This document shows positions 1 through 7,977 of a stretch of DNA of 27,123 nt, one piece after another. Numbering within the stretch: position 1 is the first letter of the stretch; each line of letters opens with the position of its first letter. The notes beneath the pieces were generated by a model. It searched no databases. It was not told the DNA's origin and saw nothing but the letters and a program-made list of their open reading frames with translations. The DNA lies in assembly GCA_963770935.1 (NCBI GenBank), contig CAVYRJ010000018.1, positions 1 through 27,123 on the forward strand, read 5' to 3'. The position numbers and the translations under genes were made by a program. This stretch comes from Candidatus Bathyarchaeota archaeon (lineage in GTDB: Archaea > Thermoproteota > Bathyarchaeia > Bathyarchaeales > Bathycorpusculaceae).

Positions 1-140
1 ACACTGGTAAGTCAGTTTTTGAGGCAGTTGTGGGGCAAAATCAAAACTATCTTTTGGGATATTGCAAGAGTACGTCTCTTCCAAAGAATCAAGGAGCTTA
101 TGCATCATGAAAGCACTTTTTCTAAAGTTAATCCCTAATT

Positions 141-173
141 TTAGATGATGGGGAGTTTCCAGCCTTCTTTTTG
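141..173 (-). repeat. Repeat copy R1: orphan 3' end of RHH gene (reads QKEGWKLPII*)
   Basis: 151-172 gggagtttccagccttcttttt is identical (22/22) to 1722-1743; the stop codon lies at the same offset (141 vs 1712). Confidence 0.85.
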
Positions 174-193
174 TATGAAAAAGCTTTTTCATA
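174..193. repeat. Perfect 20-bp palindrome tatgaaaaagctttttcata
   Basis: Read directly from the sequence; abuts R1 and covers the kelch gene stop codon. Confidence 0.8.
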
Positions 194-1424
194 ACACTTC
201 AATGAACGCTTGCATCATAAGATTTCTTTGTTGCGAGGTTGTTTGGGTTTTTCTTTTGTGGTAGACAATTAAGCCGGTACTGACCGCAACAGCTATAGCG
301 ACGGCGACGACCACTATGGGCAAGGGTTGAGCGGGCTGGTCTGGTTCTTTTTGCGTAGGATTGCTCGACGCGGGTGGCTGCACGGTGCCATAACCAAAAG
401 GCGTATACACCTCCACAGCACTTGTTTGATTGCCTATCCAGGCGCCATCCATTTTTGTTCCTCCGCCCAACGCGTAGATTTTATCGTCCACTACGGCAAC
501 CGCAGGGCTGTAGCGTGCAGTAGGCATATCTGCGGCTCTGCTCCAGGTATCCGACGCCGGATCATACCTGAAAACTGCATTCACACCATCCTGATAAGTC
601 AAACCGTGGATGATGGCGCCGCCTACGATGTAGATTTGCTTTGGAGCATGCTCGCCTGTGGTTGCGACTAGGCGGCTTTGCTTGTAGAATGTGGGCAGGG
701 TTGCTCCTGTGCTCCAAGTATTTGTTGCTGTATCGTAAATTTGCAGCTTGCCTTCGCCGATGGTTACGGCGACGCCCCTACTGGTGTCTGATATTACGTA
801 TATTTTATCATCTACTGCAGACGCGAAAGTGGGGTCTGATACTTCTTGGGGCAATTCGGATATTCTTGTCCAAATGTCGGTTTCTGGGTGATATGCGTCT
901 ATGTTTGAACCTGTACTAGTCATGGTTGAACCATAGAATTTTCCACCGCTGTAGATTGCGTATATTTTACCGTTAACGGTGTTTGCAATCAGTTGGGTGC
1001 TCTGATCGATTGTGGGTTGTTTTGCTTCCCAAGTGCCTGTTTGCGTATCATAGGCTTCGGTGACATTGGTGGGGTAGCTTCCTTTAGCACCGCCTGGAAT
1101 GGGATAGTGGTGGGACCCGCCTATTGTGTAGATTTTGTGGTCTACTACTGCTATGCCGAAGCCTGCTCTGTTTGTTGGCATGGGTGCTGTTTGGGTTAAT
1201 GTTTGGCTTTGAGGGTCGTACACAAAAAGGCGGGTAGTATACTCCTGGCTGCTGAATATGTATATTTTATCGTCTACCGTTACTGCGGTGCCGCTTAACT
1301 GTTCAGGCAGGGGCTGTAGGGTTTGCCAAGTGTCCTCTTCTGTTGCGAGAGTATTTTGGAAATTAACAAAAAGTAATGAAGAAAGAACCATTAAACAAGC
1401 CAGCGCTAAACAAGCCCTAGACAT
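189..1424 (-). CDS. Kelch-repeat beta-propeller cell-surface protein with signal peptide and C-terminal membrane anchor
   Basis: Repeated kelch motifs (KIYTIGG..YD..T.TW, MPTARYSPAVAVVDDKIYALGG); hydrophobic N-terminus; P/Q-rich linker; TM helix followed by HKRK. Confidence 0.9.
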   Translation of the reverse strand: MSRACLALACLMVLSSLLFVNFQNTLATEEDTWQTLQPLPEQLSGTAVTVDDKIYIFSSQEYTTRLFVYDPQSQTLTQTAPMPTNRAGFGIAVVDHKIYTIGGSHHYPIPGGAKGSYPTNVTEAYDTQTGTWEAKQPTIDQSTQLIANTVNGKIYAIYSGGKFYGSTMTSTGSNIDAYHPETDIWTRISELPQEVSDPTFASAVDDKIYVISDTSRGVAVTIGEGKLQIYDTATNTWSTGATLPTFYKQSRLVATTGEHAPKQIYIVGGAIIHGLTYQDGVNAVFRYDPASDTWSRAADMPTARYSPAVAVVDDKIYALGGGTKMDGAWIGNQTSAVEVYTPFGYGTVQPPASSNPTQKEPDQPAQPLPIVVVAVAIAVAVSTGLIVYHKRKTQTTSQQRNLMMQAFIEVL

Positions 1425-1711
1425 ACTGCTTCAATAGGAGCCATTTGGCTTTTCTAGGCTTATATAATTTACTCTATCAATGCAAACTCATTAAATCATC
1501 ATATTGAAGCCACAGAATTCGTTTTTCCTAAATACAGCAAACTGTTCGAGCCCATTTTCACCAAAGTATTCGACTTTGATGCCAAAGAAGAGAACGAAAC
1601 CATAACAGTCGTATTTACACAAAAACCTCCTATCTCCAACACTAACTGCGCGCTCAAACCAAAAATAATTGTTAGAAGGTTTTTCCTTGGAAGATGTCTT
1701 AAATGGAGATG

Positions 1712-1750
1712 TTAAACTTCTGGGAGTTTCCAGCCTTCTTTTTTCTTCCT
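1712..1750 (-). repeat. Repeat copy R2: native 3' end of RHH1 (RKKKEGWKLPEV*)
   Basis: Core tctgggagtttccagccttctttt shared with the other copies. Confidence 0.85.
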
Positions 1751-2107
1751 GCCGATAAGATTTTTTATATCTGGTTGATCTAAGGCAAAGCGGATGTGTT
1801 CACAGTTGCTTGCATCACATATTGGGCAGTAAATTCCTTCGGGGGTGATTTTGATGTCCGCTACTTGGCCTAGCCTTACGTCTCTGACTTTTACGCCATC
1901 ACTGGTGCGATTTAGCATTTGAAAGTGTTTATCTGCCCCGTAATTGTCGAGTAGCTCTCTGAGTGCTACTTTAACGATTTCTGCCTTGCTTTTGAACCCT
2001 TTTTTGCCGATTAGTTTGTCTGCTTCTTGGGAGAGTTCTTTGGGTATTCTCACTGTGACGTAATCGTCTTCTTTGCCGCTTTTTTCGTCTTTTGTTTTTT
2101 CGGACAT
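1712..2107 (-). CDS. RHH (CopG/Arc/MetJ-like) regulator with C-terminal Cys/His zinc-binding-like domain (RHH1)
   Basis: YVTVRIPKEL...GFKSKAEIVKVALRELL RHH pattern; C-terminal CPIC..NCEH; paralog of 4760-5170. Confidence 0.85.
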   Translation of the reverse strand: MSEKTKDEKSGKEDDYVTVRIPKELSQEADKLIGKKGFKSKAEIVKVALRELLDNYGADKHFQMLNRTSDGVKVRDVRLGQVADIKITPEGIYCPICDASNCEHIRFALDQPDIKNLIGRKKKEGWKLPEV

Positions 2108-2124
2108 ATTTTGGCCTTCTTGGT

Positions 2125-2184
2125 TTAGCGTCGGATAGTTTCCAGTCCTCTTTTCTTTTGTTGTGGATTATTTTTTTGGCTTAA
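2125..2184 (-). repeat. Repeat copy R3: degenerate orphan RHH 3' end (reads KKIIHNKRKEDWKLSDA)
   Basis: 2137-2173 matches 2669-2705 at 34/37 nt; ends 17 bp before the RHH1 start codon. Confidence 0.8.
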
Positions 2185-2527
2185 CGGCAGCTCTGACTCG
2201 TTTTTTATGATAATCTGGGTCGATAGTTGCAGAGATGTCAAAGTCTATCGCTCTAAGTCGCCTCTGTAAGCAGATCCTCTTGGGTGCGTCTATTGATTGT
2301 GTCTTCTGCCATGTCCATAAGGAGGCATTCGCAGATTACGCAGCGATAAATGCCTTTTAACTGGTCGTGAAATAAATCGGTTTTTGCCAAAACCAAAACA
2401 CATCTTCTTTATCCGCGGCTAACATGGAAATTTCAGAGATGCAGATTTGAGAGCTTAGTTTCTCAAGAATGGTTTTTACCTCTTGTTCAGTTCTACGGCA
2501 TATCCAGCATTGTTTTTCTTTACTCAT
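2168..2527 (-). pseudogene. Small double-CxxC zinc-finger protein, frameshifted (not in ORF track)
   Basis: ATG at 2527 gives MSKEKQCWICRRTEQEV... (stop 2357); an overlapping frame continues ...KGIYRCVICECLLMDMAEDT; the 3' end is uncertain. Confidence 0.55.
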
Positions 2528-2655
2528 CAACCTTTCACTAAACCCAATAGGGGATTTAGTTATGTTATAAAGAGAAGGTTGTATAGACCTATTTTGTAAG
2601 GGGAGGGTTACTTGAAAGTGGTAACTTTGTTCGGACGAATTTTTTTAGGAGATTT

Positions 2656-2716
2656 CTAGATGTCTGGGAGTTTCCAGCCTTCTTTTCTTTTGTTGCGGAT
2701 TATTTCTATAATTTCT
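2656..2716 (-). repeat. Repeat copy R4: orphan RHH 3' end (reads EIIEIIRNKRKEGWKLPDI*)
   Basis: 2657-2716 vs 4761-4820 match at 56/60 nt, ungapped. Confidence 0.92.
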
Positions 2717-2835
2717 TGTTGTAAGATGAGGTGTAGGTTGGGAGTTGGATTTTGAGGGATTAGTCTTGACGTGTTTTTCTTTAGTCAAGCGCTGATTCAA
2801 GTAAACTATGTAAGCACCCCTAACCATGTAGACTT

Positions 2836-4509
2836 ATGAAATACTTGGGGAAACTCGTCACAATCATATTGATTAGTGCGATCGTTTTATCGAGTTTTAC
2901 TTTAATTAGCGGAATTCAGGCATCGGTAGGAGGAAACATCACTTCCAATACAACTTGGACCAAAGCCGACAGCCCCTACACTTTAACTGGAACCGTGACT
3001 GTGGACTCTGGCGCAACTTTAACAATTGAACCTGGAGTCACCATACGAATTCCCAACGATTGCACGTTGCAGGTAAACGGCATTTTGGTTGCCAGAGGTA
3101 CAAGTTCTGAAAAAATCAGTTTTACAGGCGGGGACGTTTCCCTTGGTGGAAGCGGTTCAGGCAGCGTGATTGAGAATGCAATCTTAGATCCTACTAATCT
3201 TATTATTGACAGTTCAGCTACAATTAATGGCAACACCATCATTGGGCGAGGCTCAGCAAATAGCTTCGAAGCAGTGTTAATCAATGGTGGAGCACCCAGC
3301 ATTTTGAACAACCTTATTTATGGAGCAGACAGCCAACGTGGAATTCGCATAACCGGGGGGTCCCCAACAATTAGCTCAAACGGCATAATGGGCATGATAA
3401 TCAGCGAAGGCAAAAACGTGGGGACCCCAGTTATTTCCCATAACACCATTGAGGGAGGCATCTCATTGTCAAAAAGCGGCGCAACCATTACAAATAATCT
3501 AATCACTGGATTTAAGTATGTCAACTTCAACGGCGACGTTGATAGTCTCTATACCTTGATATATGACAGCTGGCTTGGTAGCGGTATTGGCATTACGGCA
3601 GACTACGAAAATATACAACATGGCGCAGGCGCAGTGATCACTGACAACGTTATCACAGGTTGTGAAGATGGGATTTCTGTTTTGCAAGGCGGCACAACAA
3701 CCATAGAGAGAAATCTAATCATTAACACCTCAAGAGTAGCACTTCACGTATCATCCGACGCCATCATCAGCGATAACACGATAAGAAACAACCAAAAAGG
3801 TATAGTGGTAGGCAACGCGCCGACCTTGACTGTGAGAAACAACAACCTGGAAAACAATGGCAATTACAGCTTTTACCTCTATACAGGCAATAATGTTGAT
3901 GCAACAAGTAACTGGTGGGGCACAAACGACACCCAAATCATCGAAAACAGCATTTGGGATAGCACCTTTGAGCCATACGACGGAACGGTAAGCATTAATC
4001 CAATTCTAACCTCGCCAAACCCACAAGCACATCCCAACTCCATGATATTCCCAAGCATTAACATGCCAAACAGCGACGGCTCAGATAGCAACCCCTTCCA
4101 CATTGGAACCAACAGCACCGTAACCGACGTATTCTTCAACCCCGAAAATGCAACACTCAGCTTCACTGTCAGCGGCCCAAGCGGCACCGAAGGCTCTACC
4201 AATGTAACCATGACCAAATCTGCTATGCCAAACAGCGGGACCCTCAAAGTCACCATAGACGAAAAACAAATTAATTATGCCCTTGCCGATAACGGCGATT
4301 CATGGAATTTAGGCTTCACCTATATCCACAGCGCTCACAGAGTAACCATCACAGACGGAGTAAACCAAACCCAACCCACACAAACGCCAACCTCAACACC
4401 AGTTTCTGCTGCTGACGAATTCAACATCCTGCCAATAGCATTATTCCTCATCACAGCACTCGCAGCTGTAAGCCTTATTATTGTTGGGTTAAAAAGAAAA
4501 AAATCCTAA
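2836..4509 (+). CDS. Secreted/surface right-handed parallel beta-helix (NosD/pectin-lyase-like) protein with C-terminal membrane anchor
   Basis: Signal peptide; TTWTKADSPY...TLTIEPGV motif; many I..N.I repeats; NWWG motif; PT linker; TM helix plus KRKKS. Confidence 0.88.
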   Translation: MKYLGKLVTIILISAIVLSSFTLISGIQASVGGNITSNTTWTKADSPYTLTGTVTVDSGATLTIEPGVTIRIPNDCTLQVNGILVARGTSSEKISFTGGDVSLGGSGSGSVIENAILDPTNLIIDSSATINGNTIIGRGSANSFEAVLINGGAPSILNNLIYGADSQRGIRITGGSPTISSNGIMGMIISEGKNVGTPVISHNTIEGGISLSKSGATITNNLITGFKYVNFNGDVDSLYTLIYDSWLGSGIGITADYENIQHGAGAVITDNVITGCEDGISVLQGGTTTIERNLIINTSRVALHVSSDAIISDNTIRNNQKGIVVGNAPTLTVRNNNLENNGNYSFYLYTGNNVDATSNWWGTNDTQIIENSIWDSTFEPYDGTVSINPILTSPNPQAHPNSMIFPSINMPNSDGSDSNPFHIGTNSTVTDVFFNPENATLSFTVSGPSGTEGSTNVTMTKSAMPNSGTLKVTIDEKQINYALADNGDSWNLGFTYIHSAHRVTITDGVNQTQPTQTPTSTPVSAADEFNILPIALFLITALAAVSLIIVGLKRKKS

Positions 4510-4759
4510 CTATAAATCAGGTCATCGAAAACTTCATTGAAGAACGGTAAAGGCAAAAGCAAAACGCATGAATTCTTCACTTTCGCGCAAGCCTCCACCG
4601 CTCGCTCGCACCCTTTGGATAGTTTTAAAAGGCTATCAGAAAATAGAGAAGATGGTAGTTGAAAACCAAAGTTATTTACGTAGAAACTGGAAGGAGATAA
4701 TATATTTCAAAAAACCCCACTCAATAATTCCAAAATCTCATTTTATTTATCTAAGTAGC

Positions 4760-4820
4760 TTAGATGTCTGGGAGTTTCCACCCTTCTCTTCTTTTGTTGC
4801 GGATTATTTCTTTGATTTCT
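4760..4820 (-). repeat. Repeat copy R5: native 3' end of RHH2 (EIKEIIRNKRREGWKLPDI*)
   Basis: 56/60 identical to R4. Confidence 0.92.
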
Positions 4821-5170
4821 GGAACAGTTAATGCAAATTCTATGTGTCCGCAGTTCTCGCTTTCGTCTAGTTCGCAGTATATTCCTTCTGGTTTGAAGCG
4901 TATGTCTGCTATTCTGTGGAGTTGTCGGTCGGTGATTCTTACGCCATGTACGCCCATGTTGAAGTGGTCGTAGCGTGGCAGGACCGGCATGACTGGTTCG
5001 GGGGGCTTGTATTTGGTTAAGAGTTCGCGTAGTGCTTCTTTGACGATTTCTGCGCGGCTCTTAAAGCCGTATGTGCCGATTAATTTGTCCATTGAGTTAA
5101 CTAGGTCATTTGGCAGTTTTATTGTGGTGTAGTCGCCTTCGATTGGTTCTTTTTCTATTCTTCTTGGCAA
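4760..5170 (-). CDS. RHH regulator with C-terminal Cys/His domain (RHH2), putative element repressor
   Basis: YTTIKLPNDL...GFKSRAEIVKEALRELL; EGIYCEL..ENCGHIEFAL; TTG start; divergent from the integrase operon. Confidence 0.85.
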   Translation of the reverse strand: MPRRIEKEPIEGDYTTIKLPNDLVNSMDKLIGTYGFKSRAEIVKEALRELLTKYKPPEPVMPVLPRYDHFNMGVHGVRITDRQLHRIADIRFKPEGIYCELDESENCGHIEFALTVPEIKEIIRNKRREGWKLPDI

Positions 5171-5321: not shown

Positions 5322-5477
5322 ATGACACAGGAATATGTAACTATAAAACTGCCCTGCAACATAGTCAACGAAGTCCTCGACCCGCTAGTTGGAACACATG
5401 GCTACTCAAGCAGAGCCGACGTCCTAAAAGACGCACTACGAAGACTATCCGAAAAATACAAATCATCGGCAAACTAA
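5322..5477 (+). CDS. Small stand-alone RHH protein, 51 aa (RHH3; not in ORF track)
   Basis: MTQEYVTIKLPCNIVNEVLDPLVGTHGYSSRADVLKDALRRLSEKYKSSAN; ggtga RBS; clear similarity to the RHH1/RHH2 N-domain. Confidence 0.85.
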   Translation: MTQEYVTIKLPCNIVNEVLDPLVGTHGYSSRADVLKDALRRLSEKYKSSAN

Positions 5478-5535: not shown

Positions 5536-5652
5536 GTGTCTAAACACCACGCCATTTGTATTCTGACAATTTTTGAAGCCCTTCTCCCCGATTCAAAAAG
5601 CTTCCTAAGCAAGAACACATCATCTCTTTGGCTCGGAGGGCGCTGCTTATGA
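5536..5652 (+). CDS. Putative 38-aa small protein
   Basis: aggagga RBS at 5524-5530, GTG start, and TGA stop overlapping the next ATG (atga). Confidence 0.4.
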   Translation: MSKHHAICILTIFEALLPDSKSFLSKNTSSLWLGGRCL

Positions 5653-5891
5653 CGGTTTTTGACGATCTTAAAGAAAAGTTTCTTGTTTTGCCCGTTGATG
5701 ACTTGGGGGATTGTATTGCCATTCCTGGTGAGGAGCTTGATCTTGATTGGATTTTGATGTTTCTAGAAGAGGGCTATCGCTTTGAGGGTTGTCTTATTGA
5801 TGGATATCCGTTTGTTTTAGTGCAGGTTAAGCCTATAGTTATCGATAGACCAACTGAAACCTTGAGCACTCGCGAAGGGGACTTTAACTAA
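5649..5891 (+). CDS. Hypothetical acidic protein of the integrated element
   Basis: ORF track 5628-5891; ATG at 5649 has a ggaggg RBS; abuts the next ORF. Confidence 0.6.
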   Translation: MTVFDDLKEKFLVLPVDDLGDCIAIPGEELDLDWILMFLEEGYRFEGCLIDGYPFVLVQVKPIVIDRPTETLSTREGDFN

Positions 5892-6419
5892 TTGGTTGAA
5901 GGGCAAGGACAAGCTGGTCTTTTTGTCTCTGCAGAGGAATGCGTATTTGACACTAAAGCCGGACCAAATTCCTGCAAGTCAGAGCCAACTTTGAACTCTA
6001 CTGACGCTAACCCTCAAATTTCCAAATCCATTCTTGAATTCAAAAATTTAGTTTATATCCGCTACAATGACCATGCTCACTTTCACCAGTCATCTGCAAT
6101 GATTATGGCGCCAATTGTTAGGGAAGCTGTTGGTTGGCTTGTCTATGAATGCGATCAGTACATAACGTTAGTTTTTGATAGAGATGCAAGGCCGCCAACT
6201 CTGAAAGGTAGTGTGGATCCTAAAGCCTCAGGGCTGGTTCTTTTGCGTTCAGATCTTGTGGAATTTAAGAAATTAGATGATTTTTTGCCTCTAATTGGCT
6301 TGGAGCATAACTTAAATTCTCAGAGTGCCTACAAGAATGATCGAGAGTATGCGCACCTAGCCAAAGGAAGCGAAAAACTCCCAAAAAAGTCCAGAAAAGG
6401 AAGTAAAGAACTTGATTAG
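5892..6419 (+). CDS. Hypothetical protein (small beta-rich core), upstream of integrase
   Basis: 175-aa ORF with a core LVYIRYNDH...EAVGWLVYE...GLVLLRSD; overlaps the integrase start. Confidence 0.65.
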   Translation: MVEGQGQAGLFVSAEECVFDTKAGPNSCKSEPTLNSTDANPQISKSILEFKNLVYIRYNDHAHFHQSSAMIMAPIVREAVGWLVYECDQYITLVFDRDARPPTLKGSVDPKASGLVLLRSDLVEFKKLDDFLPLIGLEHNLNSQSAYKNDREYAHLAKGSEKLPKKSRKGSKELD

Positions 6420-7845
6420 CCGAGCGAACACTATAAACCCCGCAATAATTAGAACCCGCAACCTAACTGTTGAAGAACTAAAAAACCTTAATCTTCCGCT
6501 GATAATCCAAGGCAACTTTGTGATAATTGAAAGAAGCTTAAACAACTGGAAACTCAAAACACCCATAACTGTCGAACTTGACAAAATCTTAGCAGCCAAA
6601 GAAAAAGGTCTCGTTGATTACGTTATCCGCTCCTGCCTAAACGATAGACCAACCATAATTCCATACATCTTCAACAACGAAAGTTTACTCAAACTTTGCA
6701 GACATTTTCTGCGGCACTGCTCAAGCTCATACGATAGCTGCATACTATACTCAATTAATGTCCGAAAATACGCCGAATGGTTAAGCTATAGCCCAGACGC
6801 AATCATTAAAGATGCAAAGCCAGTTGGAGCAATTCCCGACCCATTAATGGTTCAGAACCACTGCGGATTTTTAAACGACTACTTAGCAGAGCTTCAAGAT
6901 TCAGGTCTTAAACCAGGATCTATCTGCAACTGCATCAAAGCCGTTAAAACCTTCTACCGAGTAAACGGCGTCAAAAAAGTAGAACTTGACGAGCCGCTTA
7001 GCAGAAAAGTCTCCTACAAAGACCGCGCACCAAAACCCGAAGAAATCACTACAATACTAGATAAAGCAGCAACGCGAGAAAGCTTTATCATCGCAGCAAT
7101 AGCATCAGGCGGATTCCGAGAAGGAACTTTTGTAAAACTCAAGTATCGACACGTAAAAGAAGATCTAGAAGCTGGACGAGTACCAATACACATCCATGTC
7201 GAGGCAGCTATCACTAAAGGAAAATACCACGATTATGACACTTTTATCAACACCGAAGCATGCAGACTGCTAAAACTCTACATAGACGAAAGAAAACATG
7301 GCACTCAAAAAATGCCTCCAGAACAACTAACAGATGAAGCACCACTTATTCGAAACAGCCGCATCGCAAAAAAAGTGTTAGGCGTCAGTGAAAAAGCCAT
7401 CAGAAAAATCGTACACGATTTAGCAGTTGAAGCAAAAGTTGCGCAAAAAATACCAGGCAGCTGGATGTACAGCGTTAGAACACATAGCTTAAGAAAATTC
7501 TTCAGGACGCAAATGAGCACAGCAAAAATCGACTCAGAAATCATCGAGTATATGATGGGACACACCATCAACACTTACACAGACGTTCAAAGCTTAGGTA
7601 TCGAAACGCTTAGGAATATGTACTCAGCTGCAGGTCTTGCAATCCGCTCTAAAACACAGACCAACAAAATTGAGCAGCTAAAAGAAATAATTCGAGCCTG
7701 GGGAGAGAATCCTGAGGAAATTCTATCACAAGACGCTCTAATGCGGGGAAATATAACTGAGACAAGCGAGCAAGCAACAAACCATCAACTATCAATTCTA
7801 GCCGAGCAACTCAAACAAGTAATTAAAAAAGAGGCCTCAAAATGA
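6412..7845 (+). CDS. int: Tyrosine recombinase / phage-type integrase
   Basis: Catalytic set R (GGFREG), K (ITKGK), HxxR (HSLRK), H (MMGH), Y (NTY); ends 34 bp from the tRNA 3' end. Confidence 0.93.
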   Translation: MISRANTINPAIIRTRNLTVEELKNLNLPLIIQGNFVIIERSLNNWKLKTPITVELDKILAAKEKGLVDYVIRSCLNDRPTIIPYIFNNESLLKLCRHFLRHCSSSYDSCILYSINVRKYAEWLSYSPDAIIKDAKPVGAIPDPLMVQNHCGFLNDYLAELQDSGLKPGSICNCIKAVKTFYRVNGVKKVELDEPLSRKVSYKDRAPKPEEITTILDKAATRESFIIAAIASGGFREGTFVKLKYRHVKEDLEAGRVPIHIHVEAAITKGKYHDYDTFINTEACRLLKLYIDERKHGTQKMPPEQLTDEAPLIRNSRIAKKVLGVSEKAIRKIVHDLAVEAKVAQKIPGSWMYSVRTHSLRKFFRTQMSTAKIDSEIIEYMMGHTINTYTDVQSLGIETLRNMYSAAGLAIRSKTQTNKIEQLKEIIRAWGENPEEILSQDALMRGNITETSEQATNHQLSILAEQLKQVIKKEASK

Positions 7846-7879: not shown

Positions 7880-7977
7880 CGGGTCCGATGGGATTTGAAC
7901 CCATGACTTTCAGCTGTCTTCGCACCCTTAAGGGGTATTAGAAGGCTGACACGCTATCCGTACTGCGTCACGGACCC
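7880..7977 (-). tRNA. tRNA-Arg(TCT) with 23-nt intron at position 37/38 (intron 7916-7938)
   Basis: GGGTCCG/CGGACCC acceptor stem, TCAGC-CTTCTA^A-GCTGA anticodon arm, GGTTCAAATCC T-arm, CTTC/GAAG BHB helix; CCA not encoded. Confidence 0.95.

Follow-up and report, generated by a model that had tools for sequence, protein, structure and literature searches.

Why are the last codons of one regulator gene repeated five times within 5 kb of an archaeal contig, and how did unrelated genes come to lie between the copies? The question is raised by contig CAVYRJ010000018.1 of a Candidatus Bathyarchaeota archaeon (assembly GCA_963770935.1), which we analyzed over its whole length of 27,123 nt (the window) and whose left end holds an array of direct copies of the 3′ end of a ribbon-helix-helix (RHH) gene, next to a gene for a tyrosine integrase. 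An earlier note, made from the letters of the window alone, had proposed that the integrase re-uses the RHH end as an attachment (att) site in an integron-like way, and had mentioned homology-driven module exchange at a conserved boundary sequence as the alternative. It is the alternative that fits our comparisons better. We regard it as probable, if by no means certain, that the array consists of stubs left by mosaic evolution in a mobile element integrated at a tRNA-Arg(TCT) gene, its parts having been joined by general recombination. At the level of sequence comparison four steps of this explanation appear established: that the element is associated with a tRNA, that the seam behind its RHH gene is a recurrent junction, that orphan RHH ends are gene stubs, and that exchanges fall within a short shared core.

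Five Copies of an RHH Gene End

A repeat search of the window returned five direct copies of one repeat family, all on the same strand (139-171, 1710-1742, 2122-2154, 2654-2686 and 4758-4790), which are called R1 to R5 here. An 18-mer core, allowing up to three mismatches, had four matches in the window against 0.04 expected, a number that 0 of 100 shuffles reached; the fifth copy, R3, is more diverged than the other four. Translated from the minus strand, each copy reads ...KEGWKLPxx and then stop, as the earlier note had claimed. The stop codon of R3 is out of frame because one base has been lost; its counterparts in loci L056 and L057 are one base longer and have the stop in frame. Translation, Pfam RHH_1 searches and an RHH2 nucleotide profile also confirmed that two copies are the true ends of intact genes (RHH1, 1712-1750; RHH2, 4760-4820) and that three are orphans (141-173, 2125-2177 and 2656-2720). 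The extent of the orphans was scored against the full-length RHH2 profile (396 positions), with which no decayed RHH sequence was detectable upstream of R1, R3 or R4. The array sits at the very start of the window, which is a complete contig, so that the scan for more copies in the rest of the contig covered the right side only. It gave none in 5171-27123, and there are none elsewhere in the 1.98-Mb assembly. Neither the remaining window nor the other 17 contigs contain other RHH genes of the array's family. A role of the repeat as a regulatory RNA or terminator was considered and rejected, there being no stable fold and no match to an Rfam family other than tRNA.

Given its place at the end of a contig, the array might be an artefact in which a repeat-rich end was mis-stitched from several strains or elements, and the indels of its CxxC gene (see below) could be long-read errors. 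The public sequencing data consisted of Logan contigs of four runs (23 runs listed, best share 0.44). Such unitig contigs break at repeats, and joints between one R and another are not showable in them; the only joints that the run contigs do display are 4496>4708 (X2 and X3) and 5633>5684 (X2), neither of which connects two R copies. Nevertheless, independent contigs of other studies carry parts of the arrangement, which argues against a misassembly. One of 864 nt (X3) spans 1827-2686, and with it RHH1, R3, the CxxC gene and R4, at ~98% identity; others span 1-215 (X1) and 4103-4818. Since similar gene-plus-orphan structures are also present in three other assemblies, an artefact seems to us very improbable.

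The RHH Stop Codon Is a Seam between Modules

We compared 21 loci, namely the window and 20 loci around RHH homologs from genomes of the same genus. In 12 of the 12 loci that align to the RHH2 module, homology with the window ends at the RHH2 stop codon (4746-4760). The genes past this stop vary by locus and come from a common pool. Extra DNA bounded by a second RHH end was found at the seam in genomes G269, G303 and G357; the insert of G269 is 1.2 kb long and encodes one membrane protein, and that of G303 (6 kb) encodes an MFS transporter, a TrmB-like regulator and a collagen-repeat protein. Cargo was therefore added downstream of the regulator, at the RHH 3′ end, by independent events in no fewer than four genomes (the window, G269, G303 and G357), each with a displaced 3′ end, and on this point the earlier note was right. 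Gene-plus-orphan arrays are rare, being found in 3 of 61 loci from genomes and in 2 of 80 from metagenomes (the best 80 of 270 relatives, 45 of the 80 having at least one R match), and orphans accompany both of the integrase families described below.

The gene end itself bears signs of exchange. Over the last 10 codons, RHH1 and RHH2 were 97% identical and agreed at 10 of 10 third positions, as compared to 50-55% third-position identity overall (L041; L038/L040). The same codons of the window's own RHH1/RHH2 pair were 80% identical, with 7 of 10 third positions shared. This pattern indicates that a 30-nt core is homogenized between RHH paralogs. The core is also under coding constraint, as seen in a near-invariant GWKLPD tail, and its synonymous positions differ in other family members. 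The sequences that flank the stop codon on its far side form few classes, which are re-assorted between RHH types. Moreover, a 450-bp RHH1 unit (1707-2156), which spans a partial R to the RHH1 stop codon, is present at 93-97% nucleotide identity in L040, L041, L042, L044, L056 and L057, that is, in seven genomes of different species when the window is included; it has three upstream and at least five downstream contexts, and the flanks are unrelated. Because the core is homogenized between paralogs, the flank classes are re-assorted and the RHH1 unit stands in varied contexts, the shared 30-nt core is evidently a site of exchange. Taken together, the comparisons indicate that related elements re-assort at the seam, that cargo, mostly genes for cell-surface proteins, accumulates there, and that each such event can leave the 3′ stub of the preceding RHH gene behind.

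The regulators themselves show a related pattern. In an alignment that included P0023 and P0027-P0033, the conserved C-terminal domain of the RHH family was joined to N-terminal RHH variants of at least three unrelated kinds. P0023 looks chimeric, with an RHH1-type N-terminus and the C-terminus of another type, which suggests that exchange occurs within the gene too.

Orphan Ends as Stubs of RHH Genes

The orphans of the window and its relatives start at profile positions 366, 341, 336, 325, 271 and 250 and are thus 30, 51 and 60 nt long in the window and 71, 126 and 147 nt long in relatives. Ragged boundaries of this kind, and orphans that run on into decayed RHH pseudogenes, were what the earlier note had named as evidence against its own proposal; the orphan of G303 does run on, as a decayed reading frame with three stops. 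An ordered series of truncations was found upstream of RHH1. In metagenome contig L130, RHH2 is intact and RHH1 comes 270 nt after it. The same tandem, with RHH2 trimmed to residue 89-92, is present in G357 and L165, and in L040 and L042 the truncation reaches further, into the RHH2-RHH1 spacer. It extends to 38 nt before RHH1 in L041, L056 and L057 and to about 70 nt in the window. Hence the RHH1 unit has five different truncation points across lineages, starting from the intact tandem of L130. Judging from this series, at least the orphans upstream of RHH1 are what is left of genes that were once complete, and their left ends are ragged. R3 lies 17 nt before the RHH1 start, and its 3′ part accompanies RHH1 in all seven genomes. 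R1 has another origin: together with its flank (window 119-174) it shares 82% identity with the RHH3 gene end in L043, which marks it as the likely remnant of an RHH gene that natively faced the DNA polymerase module described below.

The truncation series could also reflect birth and death of genes in situ, whereby tandem duplication of an RHH gene in a single element was followed by decay of the extra copies from their 5′ ends and by insertion of unrelated genes between them, with no exchange between elements. The intact tandem of L130 and its truncated versions in G357 and L165 are in keeping with such a history, as is the R3 remnant, which stands 17 nt before RHH1 everywhere; its constant place suggests retention through overlap with the RHH1 upstream region. 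However, the RHH1 and RHH2 proteins are only 47% identical to each other and each shares 90-97% identity with its equivalent from other species, so they appear to have been brought together rather than duplicated locally. In addition, R1 is similar to a third type of RHH gene, flank classes have been reshuffled from genome to genome, and the sequences suggest that the five RHH ends of the window do not group together. We therefore consider a purely local origin unlikely.

An Element Probably Integrated at a tRNA Gene

Features of the window are collected in Table 1.

Table 1. Features of the array and of the surrounding element, in window coordinates.
Feature	Position	Strand	Basis
C-terminal end of element-borne family B DNA polymerase (PolB) gene, cut by contig start	1..138	+	tblastn, blastn
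R1, orphan RHH 3′ end, ~30-33 nt	141..173	-	Profile positions 366-395
Kelch-repeat protein, C-terminal membrane anchor (cargo)	189..1424	-	Pfam Kelch_6 1.3e-33
R2, true 3′ end of RHH1	1712-1777	-	Translation
RHH1, intact regulator, 131 aa	1712..2107	-	Pfam RHH_1 21.2 bits (cut-off 20.5)
R3, orphan RHH 3′ end, ~51 nt	2125..2177	-	Profile positions 341-391
CxxC zinc-ribbon gene module (cargo), frameshifted	2185..2621 (longest ORF 2357-2530)	-	Nucleotide matches in relatives
R4, orphan RHH2-type 3′ end, ~60-65 nt	2656..2720	-	Profile positions 336-395
Right-handed beta-helix surface protein, signal and anchor (cargo)	2836..4509	+	Pfam Beta_helix 1.4e-16, NosD 8.8e-10
R5, true 3′ end of RHH2	4760-4825	-	Translation
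RHH2, intact regulator of integration/regulation module, 136 aa	4760..5170	-	Pfam RHH_1 27.4 bits (cut-off 20.5)
Small divergent RHH gene, head-to-head with RHH2	5322..5477	+	Same position, 86-92% in L038, L039, L041, L042, L048, L053, L054, L055
orf87 and orf175, conserved unknown genes of integrase module	5628..6419	+	Same order in relatives (tblastn)
Tyrosine integrase, 477 aa	6412..7845	+	Pfam Phage_integrase 1.4e-8; PHROG integrase families
tRNA-Arg(TCT) gene, 23-25-nt intron, probable attachment site	7880..7977	-	ARAGORN with intron option; Rfam tRNA

The tRNA-Arg(TCT) gene, whose 3′ end is 34 nt from the integrase stop, scored 56.2 bits in Rfam (gathering score 29) and is missed by a default run of ARAGORN. 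Copies of the same tRNA in relatives are intron-less in L208-L212 and L215 and intron-bearing in L213. Across the loci, the conserved module consists of RHH2, the small divergent RHH gene, orf87 and the integrase gene. The integrase is of two kinds, either the window type, which is preceded by orf175 and is 71-72% identical to that of the window in L052 and L055, or a second PF00589 family; orf87 and orf175 had no match to a Pfam or PHROG family. In 11 of the 21 loci a tRNA gene (for Arg, Pro, Ala, His, Ile, Asp or Leu) is found at a distance of 30-289 nt from the integrase gene of the module. At G269:C5 the tRNA-Ala 3′ end recurs 17.5 kb away as a 30/33-nt copy, which encloses RHH2; the other six 40-kb stretches gave matches of only 12-15 nt, or none. 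The tRNA-Arg(TCT) gene and a glycosyltransferase gene are syntenic in G237, G360 and G193, where the 1.5 kb next to the tRNA has no integrase match (the flank compared at these sites was 0.3-1.5 kb long, and the left flanks differ between species). Two features of tRNA-integrated tyrosine-integrase elements were thereby found, an integrase that adjoins a tRNA gene and the absence of the element from the same site in relatives. A fragment of a window-type integrase (56% identical) lies beside another tRNA-Arg(TCT) gene in G318.

Two other sites may preserve traces of such elements. G000 contig C17:16869-17006 encodes 47 residues that are 49% identical to residues 429-475 of the window integrase and may be an element remnant. 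In L049 (G303:C8) the last 13 nt of a tRNA-Pro(GGG) gene are repeated 20 nt downstream (7335-7367), just before the integrase gene, and may be an integration or excision scar.

The opposite side of the array is marked by the end of a PolB gene. The 780-aa PolB of L043 (Pfam DNA_pol_B 5.3e-35) matched positions 3-98 of the contig by tblastn, with 84% identity over residues 743-774, and blastn aligned window 12-118 with L043 2921-3026 (87%) and window 12-65 with L053 9233-9286 (85%). The relatives have, beyond the RHH gene and convergent with it, genes for a ParE-like toxin, PolB, a RadA/Rad51-like ATPase, a Pol-beta-type nucleotidyltransferase and small unknown proteins. With a tRNA beside the integrase on one side and the PolB end on the other, the array appears to lie within one tRNA-integrated element, ~2.7 kb from the tRNA.

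The PolB of the element (L043, L053, L044 and window 1-138) is a diverged protein of the archaeal type, encoded in two open reading frames (ORFs) in L053. It scored 357 bits on NCBIfam NF004418, below the cut-off, and matched Pyrococcus/Thermococcus PolB in PDB at 1e-42 to 1e-36.

Such an element would comprise two parts. On the tRNA side would stand the integrase, orf175/orf87 and a head-to-head pair formed by the small RHH gene and the gene of the 130-136-aa RHH regulator; the second part would be a convergent replication and maintenance module with the ParE-like toxin, PolB, the RadA-like ATPase and the Pol-beta-type nucleotidyltransferase. The RHH stop codon would form the seam between them.

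Regulators and Cargo Genes

RHH2 is 83-93% identical to its homologs in relatives. An AlphaFold2 (AF2) model of the protein (pLDDT 81.6) has an N-terminal ribbon-helix-helix and a beta/alpha C-domain. The N-domain matched the RHH of a ParD antitoxin (7ycw, probability 0.96). The C-domain, of four strands and two helices, carries invariant Cys, Cys and His residues; a structure search with the model gave no PDB match for the C-terminal 75 residues. RHH2 is most simply taken for the transcriptional regulator of the element, paired with the small RHH protein. In L053, L054, L055 and L040, the ParE-like toxin gene, which an unknown 120-aa gene precedes, and the RHH gene are arranged tail-to-tail. 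In fold the RHH N-domain resembles ParD, yet the RHH gene stands outside the operon of the ParE-like toxin.

The claim that each interval holds one gene held roughly, with the qualifications that the CxxC gene is frameshifted and that the beta-helix gene points the other way from the RHH genes. The kelch gene belongs to a large family of host paralogs, found in 79 of 101 genomes of the genus; its nearest relatives, L219 (75.5% nucleotide identity) and L220, have no R or RHH gene within 1.5 kb. The CxxC module is 81-87% identical at the nucleotide level in L044, L057 and L038, where no R adjoins it and its own boundaries are ragged. Compared with these three, the window copy has single-base indels, and the X3 contig has extra bases at 2247, 2260 and 2399; the frameshifts denote either a decaying gene or long-read indel errors of the assembly. 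A search of ORFs with Pfam revealed no recombinase gene within 174-4759. The gap between the beta-helix gene and RHH2 includes 211 nt (4497-4707) that are missing from contigs of the independent runs X2 and X3; this stretch lacks terminal repeats and occurs only once in the genome.

Integron-Like Accretion or Mosaic Evolution?

The proposal with which the earlier note began deserves to be weighed with these data in hand. It would make the 30-nt core a true site at which the tyrosine integrase, acting in trans, or another recombinase inserts small, integrase-less circles one after another. Cargo flanked by a duplicated RHH end in the window, G269, G303 and G357, the common orientation of all copies, crossovers that map within the core, and an integrase gene divergent from the array, as in integrons, are all to be expected of such a system. 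Nor do ragged 5′ ends exclude it, because the length of an orphan may reflect the RHH homology carried by the incoming circle.

Several of our own observations count in its favor and weigh against the explanation that we prefer. Each of the six independent orphans retains no more of the 396-nt gene than its final 30-147 nt; pieces so uniformly short are unlike random break points and could reflect a zone in which crossovers are favored. In seven genomes the RHH1 unit begins and ends at the same two points, between flanks that are unrelated, which gives it the look of a mobile cassette. The core, read from the translated sequence, holds an imperfect dyad (8-nt arms, 6/8 matching, 6-nt spacer), and tyrosine-recombinase core sites contain such dyads. 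Two null results also weigh against a tRNA-integrated mosaic element. The rest of the window's PolB gene and the far end of the element were not found in the other 17 contigs, and it is because this end is not in the assembly that the limits of the element are drawn from relatives. In the arrays, tRNA fragments of former tandem elements were likewise not found, the only matches being chance ones of 11-15 nt.

Against serial capture by the integrase stand a larger number of observations. The evident target of the integrase is the adjoining tRNA, and orphans occur with two different integrase families. R is unlike the adjoining tRNA in 11 of 11 loci: as a candidate tRNA-like secondary att site it was rejected, the longest words that R and tRNA share being 5-8 nt, no better than in shuffles. 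A 9-nt match of R1, R2 and R4 to the anticodon arm of tRNA-Arg is in inverted orientation and absent from R5. No attC-like hairpin was found in 81-nt folds around the five copies (z = -0.85, -0.70, +0.37, -0.51 and +0.51 relative to shuffles). CxxC and kelch genes exist without R in other genomes, the intervals lack a recombinase, the beta-helix gene is inverted, the arrays are rare, and the orphans of G357 and L165 come from a truncated gene of an intact tandem. From these sequence features it is distinctly unlikely that the integrase or any other recombinase built the array in this manner, and we give only a small chance to the 30-nt RHH end being a genuine secondary recombination site, that is, part of an archaeal, hairpin-free analog of integrons that stacks surface-protein genes behind a regulator. 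If that were so, archaea would have their first known system for cassette capture.

In the mosaic explanation that we prefer, general recombination would make the joins between related elements, whether co-resident or incoming, either by homologous exchange or Campbell-type single-crossover insertion through the 30-nt core, with illegitimate joins and deletions in addition; the integrase would serve for integration at the tRNA only. The window would then record at least three rounds of exchange, with R1 derived from the RHH gene that first faced PolB, R3 having travelled with RHH1, and R4 derived from an RHH2-type gene. On present evidence, the locus is an unusually clear case of mosaic evolution that leaves gene stubs behind.

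Bathyarchaeia are an abundant class of uncultured archaea, and the locus shows how an apparently undescribed family of tRNA-integrated elements among them is laid out, with an integrase/RHH switch module that faces a ParE-PolB-RadA-like module. It would be at the seam, behind the RHH regulator, that these elements swap parts and pick up surface proteins of host type. The feature to record is the use of the last 30 nt of a regulator gene as a recurrent point of exchange at which surface-protein genes pile up, and the layout should help to annotate metagenome-assembled genomes of Bathyarchaeia and to locate cargo in them.

Comparison with Known Systems

Genomes of mosaic phages and plasmids are known for module exchange at gene boundaries, for gene remnants and for 'moron' insertions. 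The present locus resembles them in that break points lie at gene ends, short boundary sequences are common to diverged modules, and truncated remnants and added surface-protein genes are found at a transcriptional seam. It differs in having three stubs of one gene family within 5 kb, each with the last 30-65 nt retained, and in the homogenization of third-codon positions between paralogs over the last 30 nt.

As in integrons (IntI, attI, attC), an integrase gene diverges from a one-directional series of short units with related ends. Unlike in integrons, the integrase is associated with a tRNA, there are no attC hairpins, one gene is inverted, and cargo is found elsewhere without the site. 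The window integrase matched the NCBIfam model XerA_Arch best (50.6 bits; cut-off 220) and had no match to models of integron integrases; the module's second integrase family scored 70 bits on TIGR02249 (cut-off 265). The locus thus fails the integron features that were tested, namely an IntI-type integrase and attC hairpins. As for recurring cassettes, the RHH1 unit is fixed-ended in 7 genomes, whereas neither the CxxC module at 3 other loci nor the two nearest kelch relatives have an R beside them. Gene-targeting integrative elements that restore the 3′ end of their target differ in turn from the array, in which the segments have no integrase of their own and the copies of the end are of unequal length.

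Our literature searches gave no description of this element family or of RHH-end repeats, and the accessible part of PMC10848311 has nothing on this element. Archaeal tRNA-integrated elements with tyrosine integrases (integrated mobile genetic elements, iMGEs, and cryptic integrated elements) have been cataloged for Thaumarchaeota; the accessible part of that catalog reports elements inside elements, insertion into 3′-distal parts of protein-coding genes and arrays that arise by re-use of a site (PMC6563490). To the extent covered there, the element of the window is like these iMGEs in having an integrase beside a tRNA gene, in varying between related genomes and in bearing cargo, and is unlike them in belonging to Bathyarchaeia and in having its repeats at an internal seam, not at the att site of the element. 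Pipolins, in the accessible portions of their descriptions, are bacterial tRNA-integrated elements that encode a PolB and a tyrosine recombinase (PMC11551731, PMC5695915). So far as those portions go, the element shares with pipolins a PolB and a tyrosine recombinase at a tRNA gene and a variable cargo region, and it would differ from them in its PolB, which appears to match the archaeal, DNA-primed type B polymerases.

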